Shown here piece by piece: positions 2,819 to 60,932 of a stretch of DNA of 64,000 bases. A program made the position numbers and the translations under genes. Under the pieces are notes generated by a model that was not told the origin of the DNA, ran no database searches, and saw nothing but the letters and a program-made list of their open reading frames with translations. Within the stretch, counting starts at the first letter, position 1. Each line of letters starts with the position of its first letter. The DNA lies in contig JBIOWE010000013.1 of the NCBI GenBank assembly GCA_044868145.1, positions 6,611 through 70,610 of the forward strand, read 5' to 3'. Origin of the DNA: Patescibacteria group bacterium. Its GTDB lineage: Bacteria > Patescibacteriota > Patescibacteriia > UBA10025 > JBIOWE01.

Positions 2819-2933
2819 AATGTTTTCTTATGAAAAAATAAATTCCCCAGAGTTTCTTGGGGAAGGACGTCTCAATATAAGATAGCATGGAATAAAACCA
2901 AAGTCAAGAATGTAATGAGAGGTTTGCCTGGAA

Positions 2934-2965
2934 TCCGTAATGCGTAATTCGAAATGCGTAATTCT
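2934..2965. repeat. heptad repeat array CCGTAAT-GCGTAAT-TCGAAAT-GCGTAAT
   Basis: direct reading. Confidence 0.55.
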
Positions 2966-3680
2966 ATGATACTCTCATCCAATTGTCCGGCGTGATGTCT
3001 GCATCGAAAAACGCCGTCAGTTGATCCGACCGCACAATATCGTTTTTCAGTTTTTGAACACCCCGCTCAAACGCCTCCAAAAACGCAAACGGATCAATGC
3101 CAAAATGAATCACGCCGAAATCAGTATTCGAAGCATTATGCAGATGCGGCGGTCCCACAATCGGGCCGTCTTTTTTTTCGTAGAGAGAAAACGCCACTTT
3201 GAAATAGCTGATGGAACGAAACTCGCTAGGCGATACACCGCCCTGCGCGATCAAATACTGTTTTAATTCCTGAAACATGGCTGCGTTATCCGCTTTCAAA
3301 CGCATAAACAGCTGGAAATTATTATGCTCAATGCTGTTGCGGAGCAGGCGCAGCCCCACGTAGTCAATCGGCTCAAGACCAAGATACGCTTTATAGAATT
3401 GTAGGAAGTCTTGGTAGCGGACTGTGGTTTTACCAAGAGCGAGCATAGTAGCTGTTTTGATGGCAATATGCACGAGCAAGAACGCCGGCAGGTGGGTTGA
3501 AACATCCTGTCGCGCCTGCTCACCGAACGTTCCTGCCAGCAACAAAATTTGCCGGCGCATCAAAAAGAGCGGCGCAAACGCCGTTGGCGGTTTCGCGATC
3601 TTCAAATACAACTGCGCATACTCCGATTCCGGCTTCTTCGGATCAAAGAAGTACAACGCCAGCTTGTCTGCAACATCCAT
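2964..3680 (-). CDS. hypothetical protein
   Basis: 238-aa ORF, no recognisable family. Confidence 0.45.
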   Translation of the reverse strand: MDVADKLALYFFDPKKPESEYAQLYLKIAKPPTAFAPLFLMRRQILLLAGTFGEQARQDVSTHLPAFLLVHIAIKTATMLALGKTTVRYQDFLQFYKAYLGLEPIDYVGLRLLRNSIEHNNFQLFMRLKADNAAMFQELKQYLIAQGGVSPSEFRSISYFKVAFSLYEKKDGPIVGPPHLHNASNTDFGVIHFGIDPFAFLEAFERGVQKLKNDIVRSDQLTAFFDADITPDNWMRVS

Positions 3681-3821
3681 ATATCTTCATTGTACCCTTC
3701 TCGCGCCAAAAAATCACCCTCTGGGTAATGCAAGGTATCATTACACGTTATGTTAGGAGACACAGCTCATCACGCAAAAACCCAGGATGACCTGGGCATT
3801 TGCGTTGGGCTGGGTCTTGGC

Positions 3822-4049
3822 CTAGTTTACGGGCCAGAATGGTCCTTCAGAAGGTCCTCCAGCAGGATTACCTCCAAAGGCTGGCGTCGACATTACACGA
3901 TCAGACACCGTGATTGGACCTGTGGCAAGAAAAATACCAGAATTTCCATTGACTGGGCAAACATTGACTTGTGCTGCGCTCGCAACTGCACCAAACGCGA
4001 AGACAGTAATTGTCGCAGCAAGTAGGCTAATAAACAACGTTTTTCTCAT
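3822..4049 (-). CDS. small secreted protein (signal peptide)
   Basis: 75 aa, N-terminal hydrophobic signal. Confidence 0.4.
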   Translation of the reverse strand: MRKTLFISLLAATITVFAFGAVASAAQVNVCPVNGNSGIFLATGPITVSDRVMSTPAFGGNPAGGPSEGPFWPVN

Positions 4050-4114
4050 GCACTATCACCTCCCTTCAAAATGAAATGTAAAGTCTACTTTACATTGTAA
4101 ACGAATGAAAAGCA

Positions 4115-4148
4115 CCTGTCAAGTTAACTTGACAGGCCCTGTGGATAA
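4115..4148. promoter_or_regulatory. perfect 22-bp palindrome CCTGTCAAGTTAACTTGACAGG (terminator-like for minus gene) abutting TGTGGATAA box (4140-4148)
   Basis: direct reading. Confidence 0.5.
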
Positions 4149-17409: not shown

Positions 17410-17703
17410 TTATTCCAGAGCACCTTTTCTAAGGTGCGGCGAAGAAGTTTTGGATTGCATTTTTGCATCCCAAAGAGCGTTGGCGAGCATGCGCACGTTC
17501 GAATCAATCGTATTCATAATTATACCATGATTCGACTCTTTCATGGCGAAGAGCGACTGCCGGAATTCGGGATCTTTGGGCAACTTCAGCTTCCCAGAGT
17601 TGAATTGTTCCGCCAAATATCGAAGCTTCGGTTCCCATTCACGGAACCGCTTTTCTCGCGCTTTTTGCAATATGTCTTTGTATGGACCAAGTTGATTTTC
17701 CAT
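17410..17703 (-). CDS. hypothetical protein
   Basis: 97 aa. Confidence 0.4.
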   Translation of the reverse strand: MENQLGPYKDILQKAREKRFREWEPKLRYLAEQFNSGKLKLPKDPEFRQSLFAMKESNHGIIMNTIDSNVRMLANALWDAKMQSKTSSPHLRKGALE

Positions 17704-17839
17704 TTGTGTATGCTAAATTGTGAATAAGTCAGGTTCTTTCAACATTTTAACCCTTTTTGCAAAGGGAGGTGATGCAAAGCTCTTTACTTACTTCTATATG
17801 TCCTTCGCCTAACCGGGGCCCCTGGCTCCGGTTTTTATT

Positions 17840-17848
17840 TGTGGATAA
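17840..17848 (+). promoter_or_regulatory. TGTGGATAA box (rc of DnaA-box consensus TTATCCACA), 6 nt upstream of -35 of sRNA unit 1
   Basis: perfect 9-mer. Confidence 0.45.
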
Positions 17849-17889
17849 ATCGTTTTGACAATAAGGAGGCCGCGAAGTAAACTAAAGGT

Positions 17890-17994
17890 AGGTGTACTTT
17901 TTCTTAAATAGGTTTGGCGCTTACCACTCCCCAAGCCAACCAAACCACCTCTCCCTACAGAGGACCCGAGCAAAAAATGCTTGGGTCTTTTTTT
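17890..17994 (+). ncRNA. candidate small RNA unit 1 (promoter TTGACA 17855-17860, 17-nt spacer, TAAACT; terminator GACCCGAGCA…TGCTTGGGTC + T7)
   Basis: promoter and terminator read directly; no conserved ORF; internal stem GGTTTGG…CCAAACC. Confidence 0.5.
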
Positions 17995-18042
17995 GCGTGG
18001 CAAACGGTTGACACGAACAAAGCTATGATGTATACTCAAGTT

Positions 18043-18144
18043 ACTTCAATATGTTCCACGGTTTGGTGCTTGGCCCCCTAAGCTAGCCAAACCACTCCCT
18101 AGTTAGAGAGGACCAAGTCGGGTAATGACTTAGGTCCTTTTTTT
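18043..18144 (+). ncRNA. candidate small RNA unit 2 (TTGACA 18008-18013, 17 nt, TATACT 18031-18036; terminator GGACCAAGTC…GACTTAGGTCC + T7)
   Basis: near-consensus promoter; paralogous to unit 1. Confidence 0.55.
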
Positions 18145-18152
18145 GTGGATAA
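18144..18152 (+). promoter_or_regulatory. TGTGGATAA box upstream of -35 of sRNA unit 3
   Basis: perfect 9-mer. Confidence 0.45.
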
Positions 18153-18192
18153 CTCATTTGACAGCTCAAAAACAATTGGTTACACTGGATTT

Positions 18193-18298
18193 GCCAATAT
18201 CAGTTCCTTGGAATGGTTTGGTACGTACTGCCACTACAAACCAAATTGTTCCTCTTTAATACCCGGCCGAAGCCCTAAAAGCTTCGGTCTTTTATTTT
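18193..18298 (+). ncRNA. candidate small RNA unit 3 (TTGACA 18158-18163, 17 nt, TACACT; terminator CCGAAGC…GCTTCGG + TCTTTTATTTT)
   Basis: as above; diverged paralog retaining GGTTTG…CAAACC stem. Confidence 0.5.
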
Positions 18299-18468
18299 CC
18301 AACCGAACGCAGGTCGCCCCGCCCGCTTCGCGTTGCGAAGCAAGGCGGGCGGGCGTGCCTGCGAACGGTCCATCCCGGTGCACCACCCATCGCACCCACG
18401 GCGGGGTGCTCTGTGTAGCTTTTTTTAATAAGGCGGGCTACTTTATTCACCCGCCTTGCTCTTATAGC

Positions 18469-20409
18469 TTACTTTTTCACGTCTTCGTATTTACCTTCGA
18501 CCGGGCCCTTGTCCTTAGACCCTGAGCTTGCCGAAGGGTCGTCGGGTTTCTTCTGCTGCTTGGCTCCGGGCTGACCAGCCGAAGGTCCCGAGCTTGCTGA
18601 GGGACCTGATTGCTGTCCATACATGGCCTGCCCGATCTTCTGAATCGCCTGCGACAATTCATCCGTCGCCTTTTTAATAGAGCTTACGTCGTCGCCGTCT
18701 TTCACCTTTTTCACGGCTTCAATCTTTTCATTAATTTCCTTCTTGGTCTTGTCGTCCACTTTCGAGTCGGCGTCTTTGAGCGCTTTTTCGGAGGTGTACA
18801 CGAGCGTGTCCGCCGTATTCTTGGCGTCTATGAGCTCGCGCTTTTTCTTATCTTCCGTCGCGTGCTTGCTCGCTTCCTGTTTCATACGTTCGACTTCGTC
18901 CTTTGACAAACCGGTTGAACCGGAAATGATGATGGACTGCTCTTTAGCCGTTGCTTTGTCTTTCGCTTTCACGTTCAAAATACCGTTCGCGTCAATGTCG
19001 AACGTTACTTCCACTTGGGGAACGCCGCGCGGCGCAGGCGGAATACCGGAGAGCATGAACTTGCCGAGGGACTTATTATCGCCGGCCATTTCGCGCTCAC
19101 CTTGGAGCACGTGAATTTCCACAGTTGTTTGATTATCCCCAGCCGTGGAGAACACCTGCGACTTGGACGTTGGAATGGTCGTGTTACGGTCAATTAATGG
19201 CGTACGCACGCCGCCCAGCGTTTCAATGCCGAGCGTCAACGGCGTCACGTCCAAAAGCAACACGTCATGCACGTCGCCCTGGAGCACGCCCGCTTGCACT
19301 GCCGCGCCAACGGCAACCACTTCATCCGGGTTCACGCCCATGTGGGGCTTTTTGCCGAAGAATTTTTCAACGGACTGGATAACGAGCGGCATGCGCGTTT
19401 GTCCGCCGACAAGAATCACTTCCTTGATGTCGGATGTTTTCATGCCAGCGTCATCCAGCGCTTTTTGTACCGGTCCAAACGTCTGCTCCACAAGGTCGCC
19501 CACAAGTTCCTCGAGCTTGGCCCGCGTCATTTTCAGGGTAAAGTGCTTTGGCCCGTTTGCGTCCGTCGTGATAAACGGCAGGTTTATTTCCGTTTCCATG
19601 GCCGTGGAAAGCTCGTGTTTCGCTTTTTCCGCTCCCTCTTTCAAGCGCTGCAGGGCCATTTGATCTTTGGAAAGGTCAATACCCTGATCTTTCTTGAACT
19701 CTTGGATCAGCCAATCAATAATCAGGCGGTCAAAGTCGTCGCCGCCCAAGTGCGTGTCGCCGTTCGTAGATTTCACCTCAACGGTATCCTTCGAAACCTC
19801 AAGGATCGAAATGTCAAACGTGCCGCCACCGAGGTCATAGACAGCTATTTTTTCATCTTTCTTTTTGTCGAAACCATAGGCGAGCGCGGCTGCGGTCGGC
19901 TCATTGATGATGCGACGGACGTTAAATCCTGCTATTTCCCCTGCTTCTTTTGTCGCGTGGCGCTGCGAATCGTCAAAATACGCTGGAACGGTAATCACCG
20001 CTTCCGTGATTTTTTCGCCGAGCTTCGCTTCCGCGTCCGCTTTGAGCTTCTGGAGCACCATGGCGGAAATTTCCTGCGGCGCATACTCTTTACTGCCCAT
20101 AACCACCTTGACCCCAGCGCCGGACTGCACCATTTTGAACGGCAGCACTTTCAAATCGCGCTGCACTTCCGGATCATCCCAGCGACGGCCGATCAACCGC
20201 TTGATCGAATAGAGCGTGTTCTCCGGGTTCGTCACTGCTTGGCGCTTCGCAATCTGACCGACAAGCCGTTCGCCATTTTTGGACATAGCAATGACCGAGG
20301 GCGTTGTTCTGGCGCCTTCGCTATTTTCAAGAACCTTTGGCTGGCCACCTTCAATAATGGCCATGCAGGAGTTCGTTGTTCCTAAATCAATTCCCAGTAT
20401 TTTTGCCAT
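18469..20409 (-). CDS. dnaK: molecular chaperone DnaK (Hsp70)
   Basis: 646 aa, [16 protein letters not shown] motifs. Confidence 0.95.
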
Positions 20410-22979: not shown

Positions 22980-23006
22980 TTAGCACTCAAAGCTCGAGAG
23001 TGCTAA
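22980..23006. promoter_or_regulatory. CIRCE operator TTAGCACTC-N9-GAGTGCTAA (perfect consensus)
   Basis: direct reading. Confidence 0.9.
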
Positions 23007-35337: not shown

Positions 35338-35346
35338 TGTGGATAA
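35338..35346 (+). promoter_or_regulatory. TGTGGATAA box 9 nt upstream of RHS start codon (reads TTATCCACA on coding strand)
   Basis: perfect 9-mer. Confidence 0.4.
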
Positions 35347-35552
35347 AGGCTAAAGGATTGATCATCTTACCCTTAGATGGCTAGCAAGGCAAGCACAAAA
35401 CATACCCCCTAACGAAGTGAGATATGTTTTGTTTTTTGGATTTTATCTTTACTGAACCACCCAAATCGCTTCAAGCGCTCTTTCGTTCAAAACTCCACAA
35501 AGGGGTTCTGTGGACCCCTTCGAAGAGTACGGTTAAGTAAACGAAAACGTTC

Positions 35553-59334: not shown

Positions 59335-60558
59335 CTATTGTATGTGCTTGATTATGTTCTTGAACACAACGGGAATGGGTGGCTCAGCGTCAACAATCAT
59401 CACAATGCCGCGTTTTTGGTAATATTGCACGATTGGGTTCGTTCGCTTATGGTACAGTTTCAGTCGCTCGCGGATTGCGGCGGGATAGTCGTCAGCGCGG
59501 CGGAAGAGCGTGCCATGGCAAACAGGGCACTGTTTCGCGTTCTTTTTGATAGTAACGCCCTCAATAAAAATGCGCCCGCATCGTTCACACATCCGCCGTT
59601 TTGTAAGCCGTTTGAGGGTTGTTTGGTCTTTAATGGGCAAATAAACAACGTGCGTGATCGATCTGCCATATCGTTTGAGCAGACGATCAAGGAAACGCGC
59701 CTGACGAAGAGTGCGTGGATAGCCGTCGAACAGGATTCCCCGGCCTTTTGGCACGCGAGCCAGCTCTTTTTCGATTAAACGGTTCACCCACGCGTCCGGC
59801 ACAAGCGCGCCTTTTTTGTTGATAAGCGCGTCAATCTTGCGGCCGAGTCTTGGATCGGTCGCAACCATTGCGCGGAGCAAGCGCCCAGTTTCGATATAAT
59901 GCAACCGAAAACGCTTCGTGAGCAATCGCGCCTGCGTGCCTTTGCCTGAACCTTGGGGACCAAGCAACACAATATGCATCAGCTGCTTTTGCCTTTGTTG
60001 TATTAGCTCGTAAAGCGCGCGAAATTTTTTCAGAAATGCTTGCCGGGTGGAATTGTTCTCAATAGTAAAATCCGCGAGCGTTATAACGGCGTCAAGCTGT
60101 TGTTGATTGCGGCTTCCGCGCCGCTCGCGCATTTCCTGTCGCAAGAACTCACTAAAGCTGACCTTGTCATCGATTTTGCCACGCCGCACTGCGCGGCTGT
60201 ACCGAATATGTGCATGGCTGGCGATCACAATAAGAAAAAAACGAGCGTGATCTTTGAACGTTTCCACCTCGCCCACGTTGCGAATGCTCGATATCACGAC
60301 TTGCTTCGCCTTTGCCTTATCTATTTTCTTCGAAGCAAGCTCGGCCAAGAAGCCCCTGCCGTACTTTTTCCTCCATGCATTCGCAGCGCGTATGAGGTCG
60401 TCCCGACTGCGGTAGCGTATCCCGCGTTTGGACATTTCCTCACGTAAAATATCAGAAAGTGAATAATGCCGGAATCCCTGTTTGGCAAAAAAGGACGCGG
60501 CAGTATCCTTGCCTGAACAATACAAACCAACAAGGCCAACGACCAGTGGTTTTTGCAT
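59335..60558 (-). CDS. adk: adenylate kinase (C-terminal ~215 aa with zinc LID CERCG…CPVC) fused to an N-terminal extra P-loop NMP-kinase-like domain
   Basis: 407 aa; N-term GLYCSGKDT P-loop; second P-loop IVLLGPQGSGKGTQ; conserved adk-map order. Confidence 0.7.
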   Translation of the reverse strand: MQKPLVVGLVGLYCSGKDTAASFFAKQGFRHYSLSDILREEMSKRGIRYRSRDDLIRAANAWRKKYGRGFLAELASKKIDKAKAKQVVISSIRNVGEVETFKDHARFFLIVIASHAHIRYSRAVRRGKIDDKVSFSEFLRQEMRERRGSRNQQQLDAVITLADFTIENNSTRQAFLKKFRALYELIQQRQKQLMHIVLLGPQGSGKGTQARLLTKRFRLHYIETGRLLRAMVATDPRLGRKIDALINKKGALVPDAWVNRLIEKELARVPKGRGILFDGYPRTLRQARFLDRLLKRYGRSITHVVYLPIKDQTTLKRLTKRRMCERCGRIFIEGVTIKKNAKQCPVCHGTLFRRADDYPAAIRERLKLYHKRTNPIVQYYQKRGIVMIVDAEPPIPVVFKNIIKHIQ

Positions 60559-60640: not shown

Positions 60641-60845
60641 TTAAAAAAGTGGCTTCAGTTTTACTAAAGCCACTTTGTGAGCTAAGTTACCCTTTTGGGT
60701 TAAACTGAAACCAAAACTTTAAGCTTCGCCGGACGAGTCCATATGACCCAACCGGAACCTTAAAGGAGTTTCAATGAACTTATTTACACCACCTCCCTTC
60801 CGGTTCTTTGCAAGAAGAGCTACTTTCTTTAAAAGAACCGCAATG
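60641..60845 (-). ncRNA. candidate ~200-nt noncoding RNA: promoter TTGACA (60876-60881) -18- TATACT (60852-60857), intrinsic terminator AAGTGGCT…AGCCACTT + T-run (60643-60675); no ORF >10 aa
   Basis: direct reading of minus strand. Confidence 0.4.
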
Positions 60846-60932
60846 TAAACAAGTATAAATGCTCTATTAATCGTTTGTCAACTGAAAAAGCGACGTGGAA
60901 AAAACGACCCTCGAGAACGGTGCGGGTTTGTT

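Follow-up and report, generated by a model that had tools for sequence, protein, structure and literature searches.

Duplicated small RNA (sRNA) genes that lie side by side, have separate promoters and terminators, and carry partly redundant seeds are known from the pairs PrrF1/PrrF2, OmrA/OmrB, and AbcR1/2. In the accessible part of their description, the tandem sRNA siblings NgncR_162/163 are likewise adjacent duplicates with individual promoters and terminators. In Listeria monocytogenes, LhrC1-5 have their own promoters, carry UCCC motifs in loops and linker, and occlude the Shine-Dalgarno (SD) sequence (PMC4132741). Together with RsaE/RoxS and RNAIII, LhrC belongs to a class of Gram-positive sRNAs whose C-rich seeds block ribosome binding at the SD sequence, and G-rich ribosome-binding sites are the predicted targets of RsaE/RoxS, RNAIII, FsrA, and SprD (summarized in PMC4132741). 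Here we describe three tandem sRNA-like transcription units next to dnaK in the DNA of a Patescibacteria group bacterium (assembly GCA_044868145.1, contig JBIOWE010000013.1, positions 6,611 to 70,610); this stretch of 64,000 nucleotides is referred to below as the window. To judge from their sequence, the units are apparently lineage-restricted tandem sibling sRNAs, an element type that is familiar in kind and lies outside any curated family. In the literature searched, we found no report of a regulatory RNA in Patescibacteria or the candidate phyla radiation (CPR).

Promoter-to-terminator units in the dnaK-orf97 gap

The units occupy the non-coding gap between dnaK and a 97-amino-acid (aa) gene, orf97 (17704-18468, 765 bp). 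This gap is the longest in the 64-kb window (next, 427 bp), in which the median gap measures ~78 bp and the coding density is ~87%. An earlier inspection of the DNA letters alone, termed here the sequence-only reading, had singled out the gap as unusually long and had proposed that it holds three units, each with a sigma-70 promoter and an intrinsic terminator. Both claims hold. The three units measure ~150 bp, lie on the + strand, and repeat, with a period of 150-153 bp, a layout of TTGACA-17-TAnACT promoter, hairpin (SL1), single-stranded C/U-rich linker, and intrinsic terminator. Each terminator is situated ~105 nt downstream of the expected start, and the implied transcripts are those given by that reading. 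Its placing of the units beside dnaK stands as well, but they are on the strand opposite to dnaK and converge on it. The features of the array are as follows.

17855-17883, + strand: unit 1 promoter, TTGACA-17-TAAACT
17890-17994, + strand: unit 1 predicted RNA, ~105 nt
17911-17946, + strand: unit 1 SL1, GGUUUGG/CCAAACC stem, inner GCUU/AAGC, C-rich loop ACCACUCCCC
~17959-17987, + strand: unit 1 terminator hairpin, then U-tail; preceded by the single-stranded linker CCACCUCUCCCUAC
18008-18036, + strand: unit 2 promoter, TTGACA-17-TATACT, 11/12 to consensus
18043-18144, + strand: unit 2 predicted RNA, ~102 nt
18060-18093, + strand: unit 2 SL1, loop GCCCCC
18105-18137, + strand: unit 2 terminator with U-tail; preceded by the linker ACUCCCUAGUU
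18158-18186, + strand: unit 3 promoter, TTGACA-17-TACACT
18193-18298, + strand: unit 3 predicted RNA, ~106 nt
18210-18252, + strand: unit 3 SL1, extended to 13 bp; in its lowest-energy fold, GGUUUGG pairs with CCAAAUU via two G-U pairs
18265-18289, + strand: unit 3 terminator, the weakest of the three, with an interrupted U-tail; preceded by the linker UCUUUAAUACCC
17757-17840, + strand: unit 0, a degenerate fourth copy recognized by direct repeats and a terminator

The three promoters match the sigma-70 consensus at 10-11 of 12 positions, each with a 17-nt spacer. The 2-kb region around the units contains 8 promoter-like sites (1.6 expected), and of the seven + strand sites with at least 10/12 matches across all 64 kb, three are the unit promoters. 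The remaining strong sites mostly precede genes, which indicates that the organism does use such promoters. The predicted RNAs open with an unstructured leader of ~20 nt and end in GC-rich terminator hairpins of -9.7 to -14 kcal/mol with U-tails. The motif GGTTTGG...CAAACC occurs three times on the + strand, compared with 0.02 expected. The stem is shared by all units, as had been described, whereas the inner GCTT...AAGC pair that had been assigned to all of them is absent from unit 3, where GUA...UAC takes its place; the C-rich loop of this unit is CUGCCAC.

The terminator-like hairpin noted ahead of unit 1 is real and has a T-tail (17811-17833), but it belongs to unit 0. This copy retains a -35-like TTGCAA (17757-17762), a 17-nt spacer, a dead -10 element, CTCTTT (17780-17785), and a leader segment, TTACTTCTATATGT (17788-17801), that agrees with the unit 2 leader at 13 of 14 positions; SL1 and the linker are missing. 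Its sequence marks unit 0 as a clearly decayed, promoter-dead remnant.

To compare the paralogs, the three units were aligned region by region, with the following results.

-35 hexamer: 6/6 identical in every unit pair
-10 hexamer: 5/6 identical between units
SL1 5' arm: 7/7 identical between units
SL1 3' arm: 5-7/7 identical between units
Promoter spacer: 2-8/17 identical between units
Leader: 32-43% identity between units
SL1 loop: 41-59% identity between units
Linker: 38-50% identity between units

Spacer, leader, loop, and linker are therefore near random, in agreement with the divergence that had been reported outside the stem. Invariant columns make up ~41% of the whole alignment, and the invariance of 11 of the 12 hexamer positions has, by our own calculation, a chance of ~4e-4. 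Since the hexamers and one helix are preserved while their flanks are near random, the duplicates appear to be old and are hard to square with decaying relics. The distance between the SL1 arms varies (22, 20, and 15 nt in units 1, 2, and 3), as expected of an RNA hairpin rather than of a DNA operator with fixed spacing. The comparison of strains yielded no micro-variation, because the Logan contigs of run SRR30692719 are identical to the window and the three available loci of a related species (L004, L005, and L010) are identical to one another.

On the + strand, the predicted folding energies are -32.9 kcal/mol for unit 1 (z -3.4), -37.7 kcal/mol for unit 2 (z -4.5), and -30.4 kcal/mol for unit 3 (z -4.4), whereas the minus strand gave weaker z values relative to shuffled controls (-1.8 to -2.1). 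In the three units, sliding the partners lowers the share of paired cells in the consensus structure from 88.9% to 29-56%. The G-C to G-U changes that SL1 and the terminators show are compatible with a + strand RNA only. A six-frame comparison of the units revealed no common frame or peptide on either strand, every frame being broken by stops or frameshifts. The short open reading frames (ORFs) do thus differ between the units, as had been noted. Those of the + strand include a 21-aa ORF in unit 3 and, in unit 2, MFHGLVLGPLS. An SD-like GGGAG or AGAGG followed by TTG is present in each unit on the minus strand; these frames are not shared, since the differences in loop length are not multiples of three. 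The AGGAGG and GGGAGG sequences of the units fall exclusively in promoter spacers and lack a usable start codon.

For the CU-runs, the predicted probability of being unpaired is 0.55-0.98 across the units (0.98 in the loop and 0.76 in the linker of unit 1; 0.67 and 0.93 in unit 2). A CU-rich motif just before or in the terminator loop is present in all three units, compared with 2 of the 31 other terminators of the window; among 231 terminators from the window and 40 related loci, the frequency is 13%. Promoters, terminators, folds, selective conservation, strand preference, and the absence of ORFs were all computed in silico and support the existence of small-RNA-like transcription units. We consider it likely that the units are maintained, independently transcribed non-coding RNA genes. 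Delimited from promoter to terminator, the cluster provides a concrete set of probes for metatranscriptomes of uncultured bacteria with reduced genomes.

Comparison with known sRNAs and related loci

A search of Rfam, which the sequence-only reading had named as a check, retrieved no family at the gathering threshold for the whole window. At E<=10, the gap gave weak, terminator-driven matches alone, the best of these sub-threshold matches being to RsaH (20.9 bits; gathering score, 50) and ncr1241, and ten related loci gave no match. The units are thus not fragments of a known element.

The array resembles the LhrC1-4 locus in that a single intergenic locus encodes several RNAs of ~100 nt, all equipped with a promoter and a terminator of their own. 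As in LhrC, two stem-loops are joined by a single-stranded stretch, redundant UCCC/CUCCC motifs are present in loop and linker, and a conserved element, which is regulatory in LhrC, is found upstream of the -35 hexamer. However, the LhrC covariance model gave no match at the gathering threshold or at E<=10, the host belongs to another phylum, and the window copies are far more diverged, whereas the LhrCs are nearly identical. Furthermore, the units lack a C-rich motif in the terminator loop, the sequence of their SL1 stem is conserved, and their host is largely SD-less. With RsaE/RoxS, RNAIII, FsrA, and SprD, the units share C-rich motifs exposed in a loop and in a single strand before the intrinsic terminator. 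Unlike the units, those genes are single-copy and conserved across Bacillales, and the RsaE/RoxS family model gave no match at E<=10. PrrF, Omr, AbcR, and NgncR are proteobacterial families with unrelated seeds, and the absence of Rfam matches is what sets the units apart from them. Our comparison therefore points to units that resemble LhrC or RsaE in design and are not members of those families, which suggests a Gram-positive-style riboregulation with C-rich seeds in these bacteria.

A covariance model built from the three units (R1) recovered only these units in the window. It returned a marginal, terminator-driven match of 19 bits in L004/L005/L010 (E 0.016, or 0.15 for the identical L010 copy in a larger search) and nothing convincing in 80 Patescibacteria loci anchored on DUF3467, 6 metagenome loci, 80 viral loci, and the loci L213-L216. 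The homolog scans used exact patterns, and the genome collection was covered through the 80 DUF3467-anchored loci. An exact-pattern scan of Joint Genome Institute (JGI) metagenomes for the SL1 core gave 6 matches, none of them a homolog: one was in a coding region, and those examined were unrelated, ORF-poor DNA without a terminator. A looser pattern scan of viral contigs gave chance matches alone.

DnaK of the window is recorded with an identical sequence at NCBI and in Logan; its next best relatives reach only ~80% identity and carry the labels Parcubacteria, Kerfeldbacteria, or Patescibacteria group. In the Parcubacteria species represented by L004, L005, and L010 (DnaK, 80% identical), the gap next to DUF3467 measures 613 bp and contains three tandem terminator-ended units opposite to the dnaK strand (8330-8745 of L004, minus strand). 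At least two of these have promoters, the terminators of two are paralogous and show a compensatory G-C to A-U change, and UCCC/CCUCC/CCUCCU motifs are found in loops and ahead of the terminator; no Rfam match was obtained. In L065, a promoter-to-terminator unit of ~175 nt with the 5' end CUUUCCCUCCU diverges from the orf97 homolog, the same arrangement as in the window. The units of L004/L005/L010 and L065 are similar to those of the window in locus, orientation to dnaK and DUF3467, terminator ends, and C/U-rich stretches (UCCCCUCCUA and CUUUCCCUCCU), and differ from them in the lack of a GGUUUGG stem. Local alignment to the L065 and L004 gaps yielded two borderline similarities alone, to the L004 cassette leader and the L065 cassette terminator, which were reached by 1 of 200 and 2 of 200 shuffles, respectively. 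At the level of sequence, homology of the window units with any unit or cassette of a relative is unproven.

At this position, L216, L003, and other loci have strongly SD-led small protein genes, some with paralogous promoters. The cassettes of L213, L216, L003, and L065 place a strongly SD-led ORF between promoter and terminator; no such ORF was found in the units of the window. In L213, the small genes (2836-3827, minus strand) encode hydrophobic proteins of 79, 86, and 62 aa, have very strong SDs, and are driven by two nearly identical TTGACA-17-TAAGAT promoters; a GC-rich palindrome is located in the intergenic region that they share with orf97. What occupies the dnaK-DUF3467 interval thus varies, and the interval is a hot spot for small cassettes of either RNA or protein. 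The locus, at which three copies are live and one is dead while cassettes turn over in relatives, illustrates the birth and death of small genes. As a separate observation, the first opposite-strand non-coding units upstream of DUF3467 in L007 (7684-7846) and L012 (1464-1734), both on the minus strand, have a common GAGGGGTTAG motif near the 5' end and may represent another conserved RNA.

Proposed mechanism and rival explanations

We propose that tandem duplication gave rise to a small family of sibling sRNAs, of which three genes would be live and one copy decayed. Each unit would be transcribed independently from its own near-consensus sigma-70 promoter into an RNA of ~105 nt, composed of an unstructured leader, SL1 (a C-rich loop on a 7-bp stem of conserved sequence), a linker, and a Rho-independent terminator. 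The linker, predicted to be a single-stranded C/U-rich stretch of 11-14 nt (CCACCUCUCCCU, CUCCCU, or UCUUUAAUACCC), would pair, together with the exposed C/U-rich loop, with G-rich, SD-like regions of mRNAs and block ribosome binding. Transcription, the pairing mechanism, the targets, and the regulator are the parts of this proposal that we infer. An SD-like sequence precedes ~10 of the 64 genes of the window, and at least 8 genes have a -10 box 4-12 nt before ATG, which suggests that these are leaderless. Since most genes are SD-less or leaderless, an anti-SD-like seed would act on the minority of genes with strong SDs rather than on translation as a whole. The strong AGGAGG SDs cluster on hypothetical genes (for example, at 762, 11038, 29837 on the minus strand, and the 42%-GC region at 62.4-63.7 kb).

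Several observations weigh against this proposal. Target prediction by duplex energy gave no outlier among the ~70 start regions covered, all from the 64-kb window of the 76.9-kb contig, and no sites complementary to the stem or the seed were found near start codons within the window. The scarcity of SDs in the genome weakens a generic anti-SD role. Seed pairing does not account for the invariant sequence of the SL1 stem, which could be a site of protein binding. Covariation was derived from three paralogs, with one-sided changes in SL1 and compensatory changes confined to the terminator. The closest orf97 relatives (L213-L215, 79%) hold small protein genes at this position and no RNAs, and the RNA family is, on present sequences, very young or narrow. 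We regard the proposal as a whole, namely independently transcribed sibling sRNAs that base-pair through C/U-rich seeds, as evenly poised, and C/U-rich seed pairing as its mechanism as a tentative suggestion, somewhat short of an even chance.

The alternatives depend in part on the genes and elements that surround the array.

18469-20409, minus strand: dnaK, last gene of an operon of the type controlled by HrcA and the controlling inverted repeat of chaperone expression (CIRCE); converges on the sRNA-like units
17410-17703, minus strand: orf97, 97-aa gene divergent from the units; homologs with 63-79% identity in L065 and P0122-P0125
22980-23039, minus-strand promoter: hrcA control region, a 12/12 sigma-70 promoter, then a perfect CIRCE (22980-23006)
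18302-18369, strand-neutral: near-perfect GC-rich palindrome of 68 nt between unit 3 and the dnaK 3' end
18377-18426, + strand: hairpin with a T7 run, next after the palindrome
18433-18460: hairpin adjoining the dnaK stop codon

The heat-shock operon has the order hrcA-grpE-bAvd-like-hsp20-112aa-dnaK on the minus strand. Its CIRCE, TTAGCACTC-N9-GAGTGCTAA, is located before hrcA and is the only one in the window; the units contain no CIRCE/HrcA operator. Beyond orf97, which is evidently a real gene, the minus strand encodes DUF3467, a 346-aa membrane protein, and DnaJ. Exact-sequence look-ups of the orf97 and DUF3467 products returned no record.

The strongest rival to base-pairing sRNAs is cis-antisense control or transcriptional interference, in which the three convergent promoters fire into HrcA/CIRCE-controlled read-through from dnaK. 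The RNAs would match the dnaK-orf97 intercistronic RNA with full complementarity, and collision or RNase III cleavage would uncouple dnaK from orf97-DUF3467-dnaJ. The units form a tight head-to-tail row directly against the dnaK 3' end, no minus-strand intrinsic terminator was detected in 17600-18500, and orf97 has no strong minus-strand promoter, the best candidates (9/12) overlapping its start codon. Heat control of dnaJ would moreover need such read-through, because the sole CIRCE is upstream of hrcA. However, a weak promoter-like site precedes DUF3467 (17431-17404), and the palindrome and hairpins at 18302-18460 may already halt dnaK transcription. Antisense control alone, in addition, needs neither a conserved SL1 stem, nor exposed C-rich loops, nor three separately terminated RNAs. 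We consider this explanation unlikely yet a live rival, and it is compatible with a trans-acting role of the RNAs.

The palindrome itself lies within the most GC-rich 100 nt of the window (0.72-0.74), and two Logan unitigs of run SRR30692719 terminate inside it. It has no Rfam match and no second copy in the window. Together with the hairpins that follow, it may be a barrier or 3'-end element between convergent transcripts or a 3' extension of a read-through unit 3 RNA.

If the RNAs served instead as sponges or decoys, the GGUUUGG/CCAAACC helix and the C-rich loop would titrate an RNA-binding protein, for which orf97 is one candidate. This would account for a stem kept in sequence and not in pairing alone (7/7 in three units) while loop and flanks drift, and the combination of a divergent orf97 with an sRNA-like unit recurs in L065. 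The L065 unit, however, has no GGUUUGG helix, the closer orf97 homologs (L213 and L216) adjoin small protein genes instead of RNAs, and orf97 has neither a Pfam match nor a recognizable RNA-binding domain, which makes this explanation quite improbable.

Another explanation is that the units are non-functional relics, i.e., decaying copies of small protein genes that retain promoter and terminator in a cassette hot spot. The presence, at this position in L213, L216, L003, and L065, of small protein cassettes that are SD-led and have paralogous promoters, the clear decay of unit 0, the AAGGAGG or AGGGAGG in the promoter spacers of units 1 and 0, and the weak similarity to the L004 cassette leader and the L065 cassette terminator are consistent with it. 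Neutral decay would, however, erode the hexamers and SL1 arms as much as the spacer (2-8/17), and these are intact in three units, which moreover contain no remnant of a common reading frame. We consider relics very improbable.

Genes for very small peptides, either of 11-39 aa on the + strand or SD-led with a TTG start on the minus strand, are barely credible and were rejected on both strands in the absence of a shared frame or peptide: short ORFs do exist in units 2 and 3, as does a minus-strand SD-like motif with TTG in each unit, but the ORFs differ in position, frame, and sequence, that on the + strand of unit 1 crosses the terminator, loops of unequal length (22 nt in unit 1, 20 nt in unit 2) shift the minus-strand frame, and neither an SD for the + strand ORFs nor a minus-strand promoter is present. 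Two further candidates were also discarded. Template/variable repeats of a diversity-generating retroelement, considered because of the nearby bAvd-like gene, do not agree with units that differ at all four bases and by indels. Arrays of the tandem interspaced guide RNA (TIGR) type, as far as the accessible part of their description goes, are not suggested by a promoter and terminator per unit and a 150-bp period.

TGTGGATAA boxes and further elements of the window

The sequence-only reading had also reported perfect TGTGGATAA boxes upstream of units 1 and 3, which we recovered 6 and 5 nt before the respective -35 hexamers.

17840-17848, + strand: perfect TGTGGATAA box, 6 nt upstream of the unit 1 -35
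18144-18152, + strand: perfect TGTGGATAA box, 5 nt upstream of the unit 3 -35; the end of the unit 2 U-tail reaches into it

TGTGGATAA is the reverse complement of the DnaA-box consensus TTATCCACA. At the corresponding position, unit 2 has a diverged sequence, TGCGTGGCA, and has lost the box; a box with one mismatch is found at 17719. The box regions of units 1 and 3 are identical at 14 of 15 positions, as opposed to 2 of 17 in their promoter spacers, and this retention alongside diverged spacers suggests selection. The window contains four perfect boxes, all intergenic and all on the + strand. The arrangement of a box plus a -35 hexamer was found in 0 of 91 other loci, the box is not enriched in relatives, and the GC skew of the window shows no sign of a replication origin. 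The boxes are candidate sites for DnaA or another factor, and under the sibling-sRNA proposal those at the -35 of units 1 and 3 would probably place two of the three genes under the control of such a transcription factor.

The most far-reaching form of the proposal is that the units are the first sibling sRNA family described for the CPR, an anti-SD-like family that silences a few strongly SD-led genes, many of them small cassettes, that was born in a fast-turnover "small-gene nursery" at a heat-shock locus and has two of its genes wired to DnaA through perfect boxes abutting the -35 hexamers, which would couple post-transcriptional control to replication status. We offer this as a long shot.

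Three observations concern other parts of the window. On the minus strand, an orphan unit of ~200 nt (~60650-60881) combines a TTGACA-18-TATACT promoter, a G-rich GGAAGGGAGGUGGUG stretch, and, near 60673, a strong terminator; neither an Rfam match nor an obvious ORF is associated with it, and it lies upstream of an apparently leaderless gene (59335-60558) with its own TATAAT. At 35338-35437 on the + strand, the fourth perfect TGTGGATAA is located 10 nt upstream of the start of a minus-strand gene of 1790 aa; ~50 nt past this box there is an orphan + strand intrinsic terminator with the C-rich loop CCCCCUAACG, preceded by a weak promoter alone and by no + strand gene. Finally, at 4117-4148, a perfect TGTGGATAA stands beside a 22-nt palindrome, CCTGTCAAGTTAACTTGACAGG, which includes the -35 of a strong minus-strand promoter (TTGACA-17-TACAAT) that drives a small SD-led ORF (GGGAGG at 4064).

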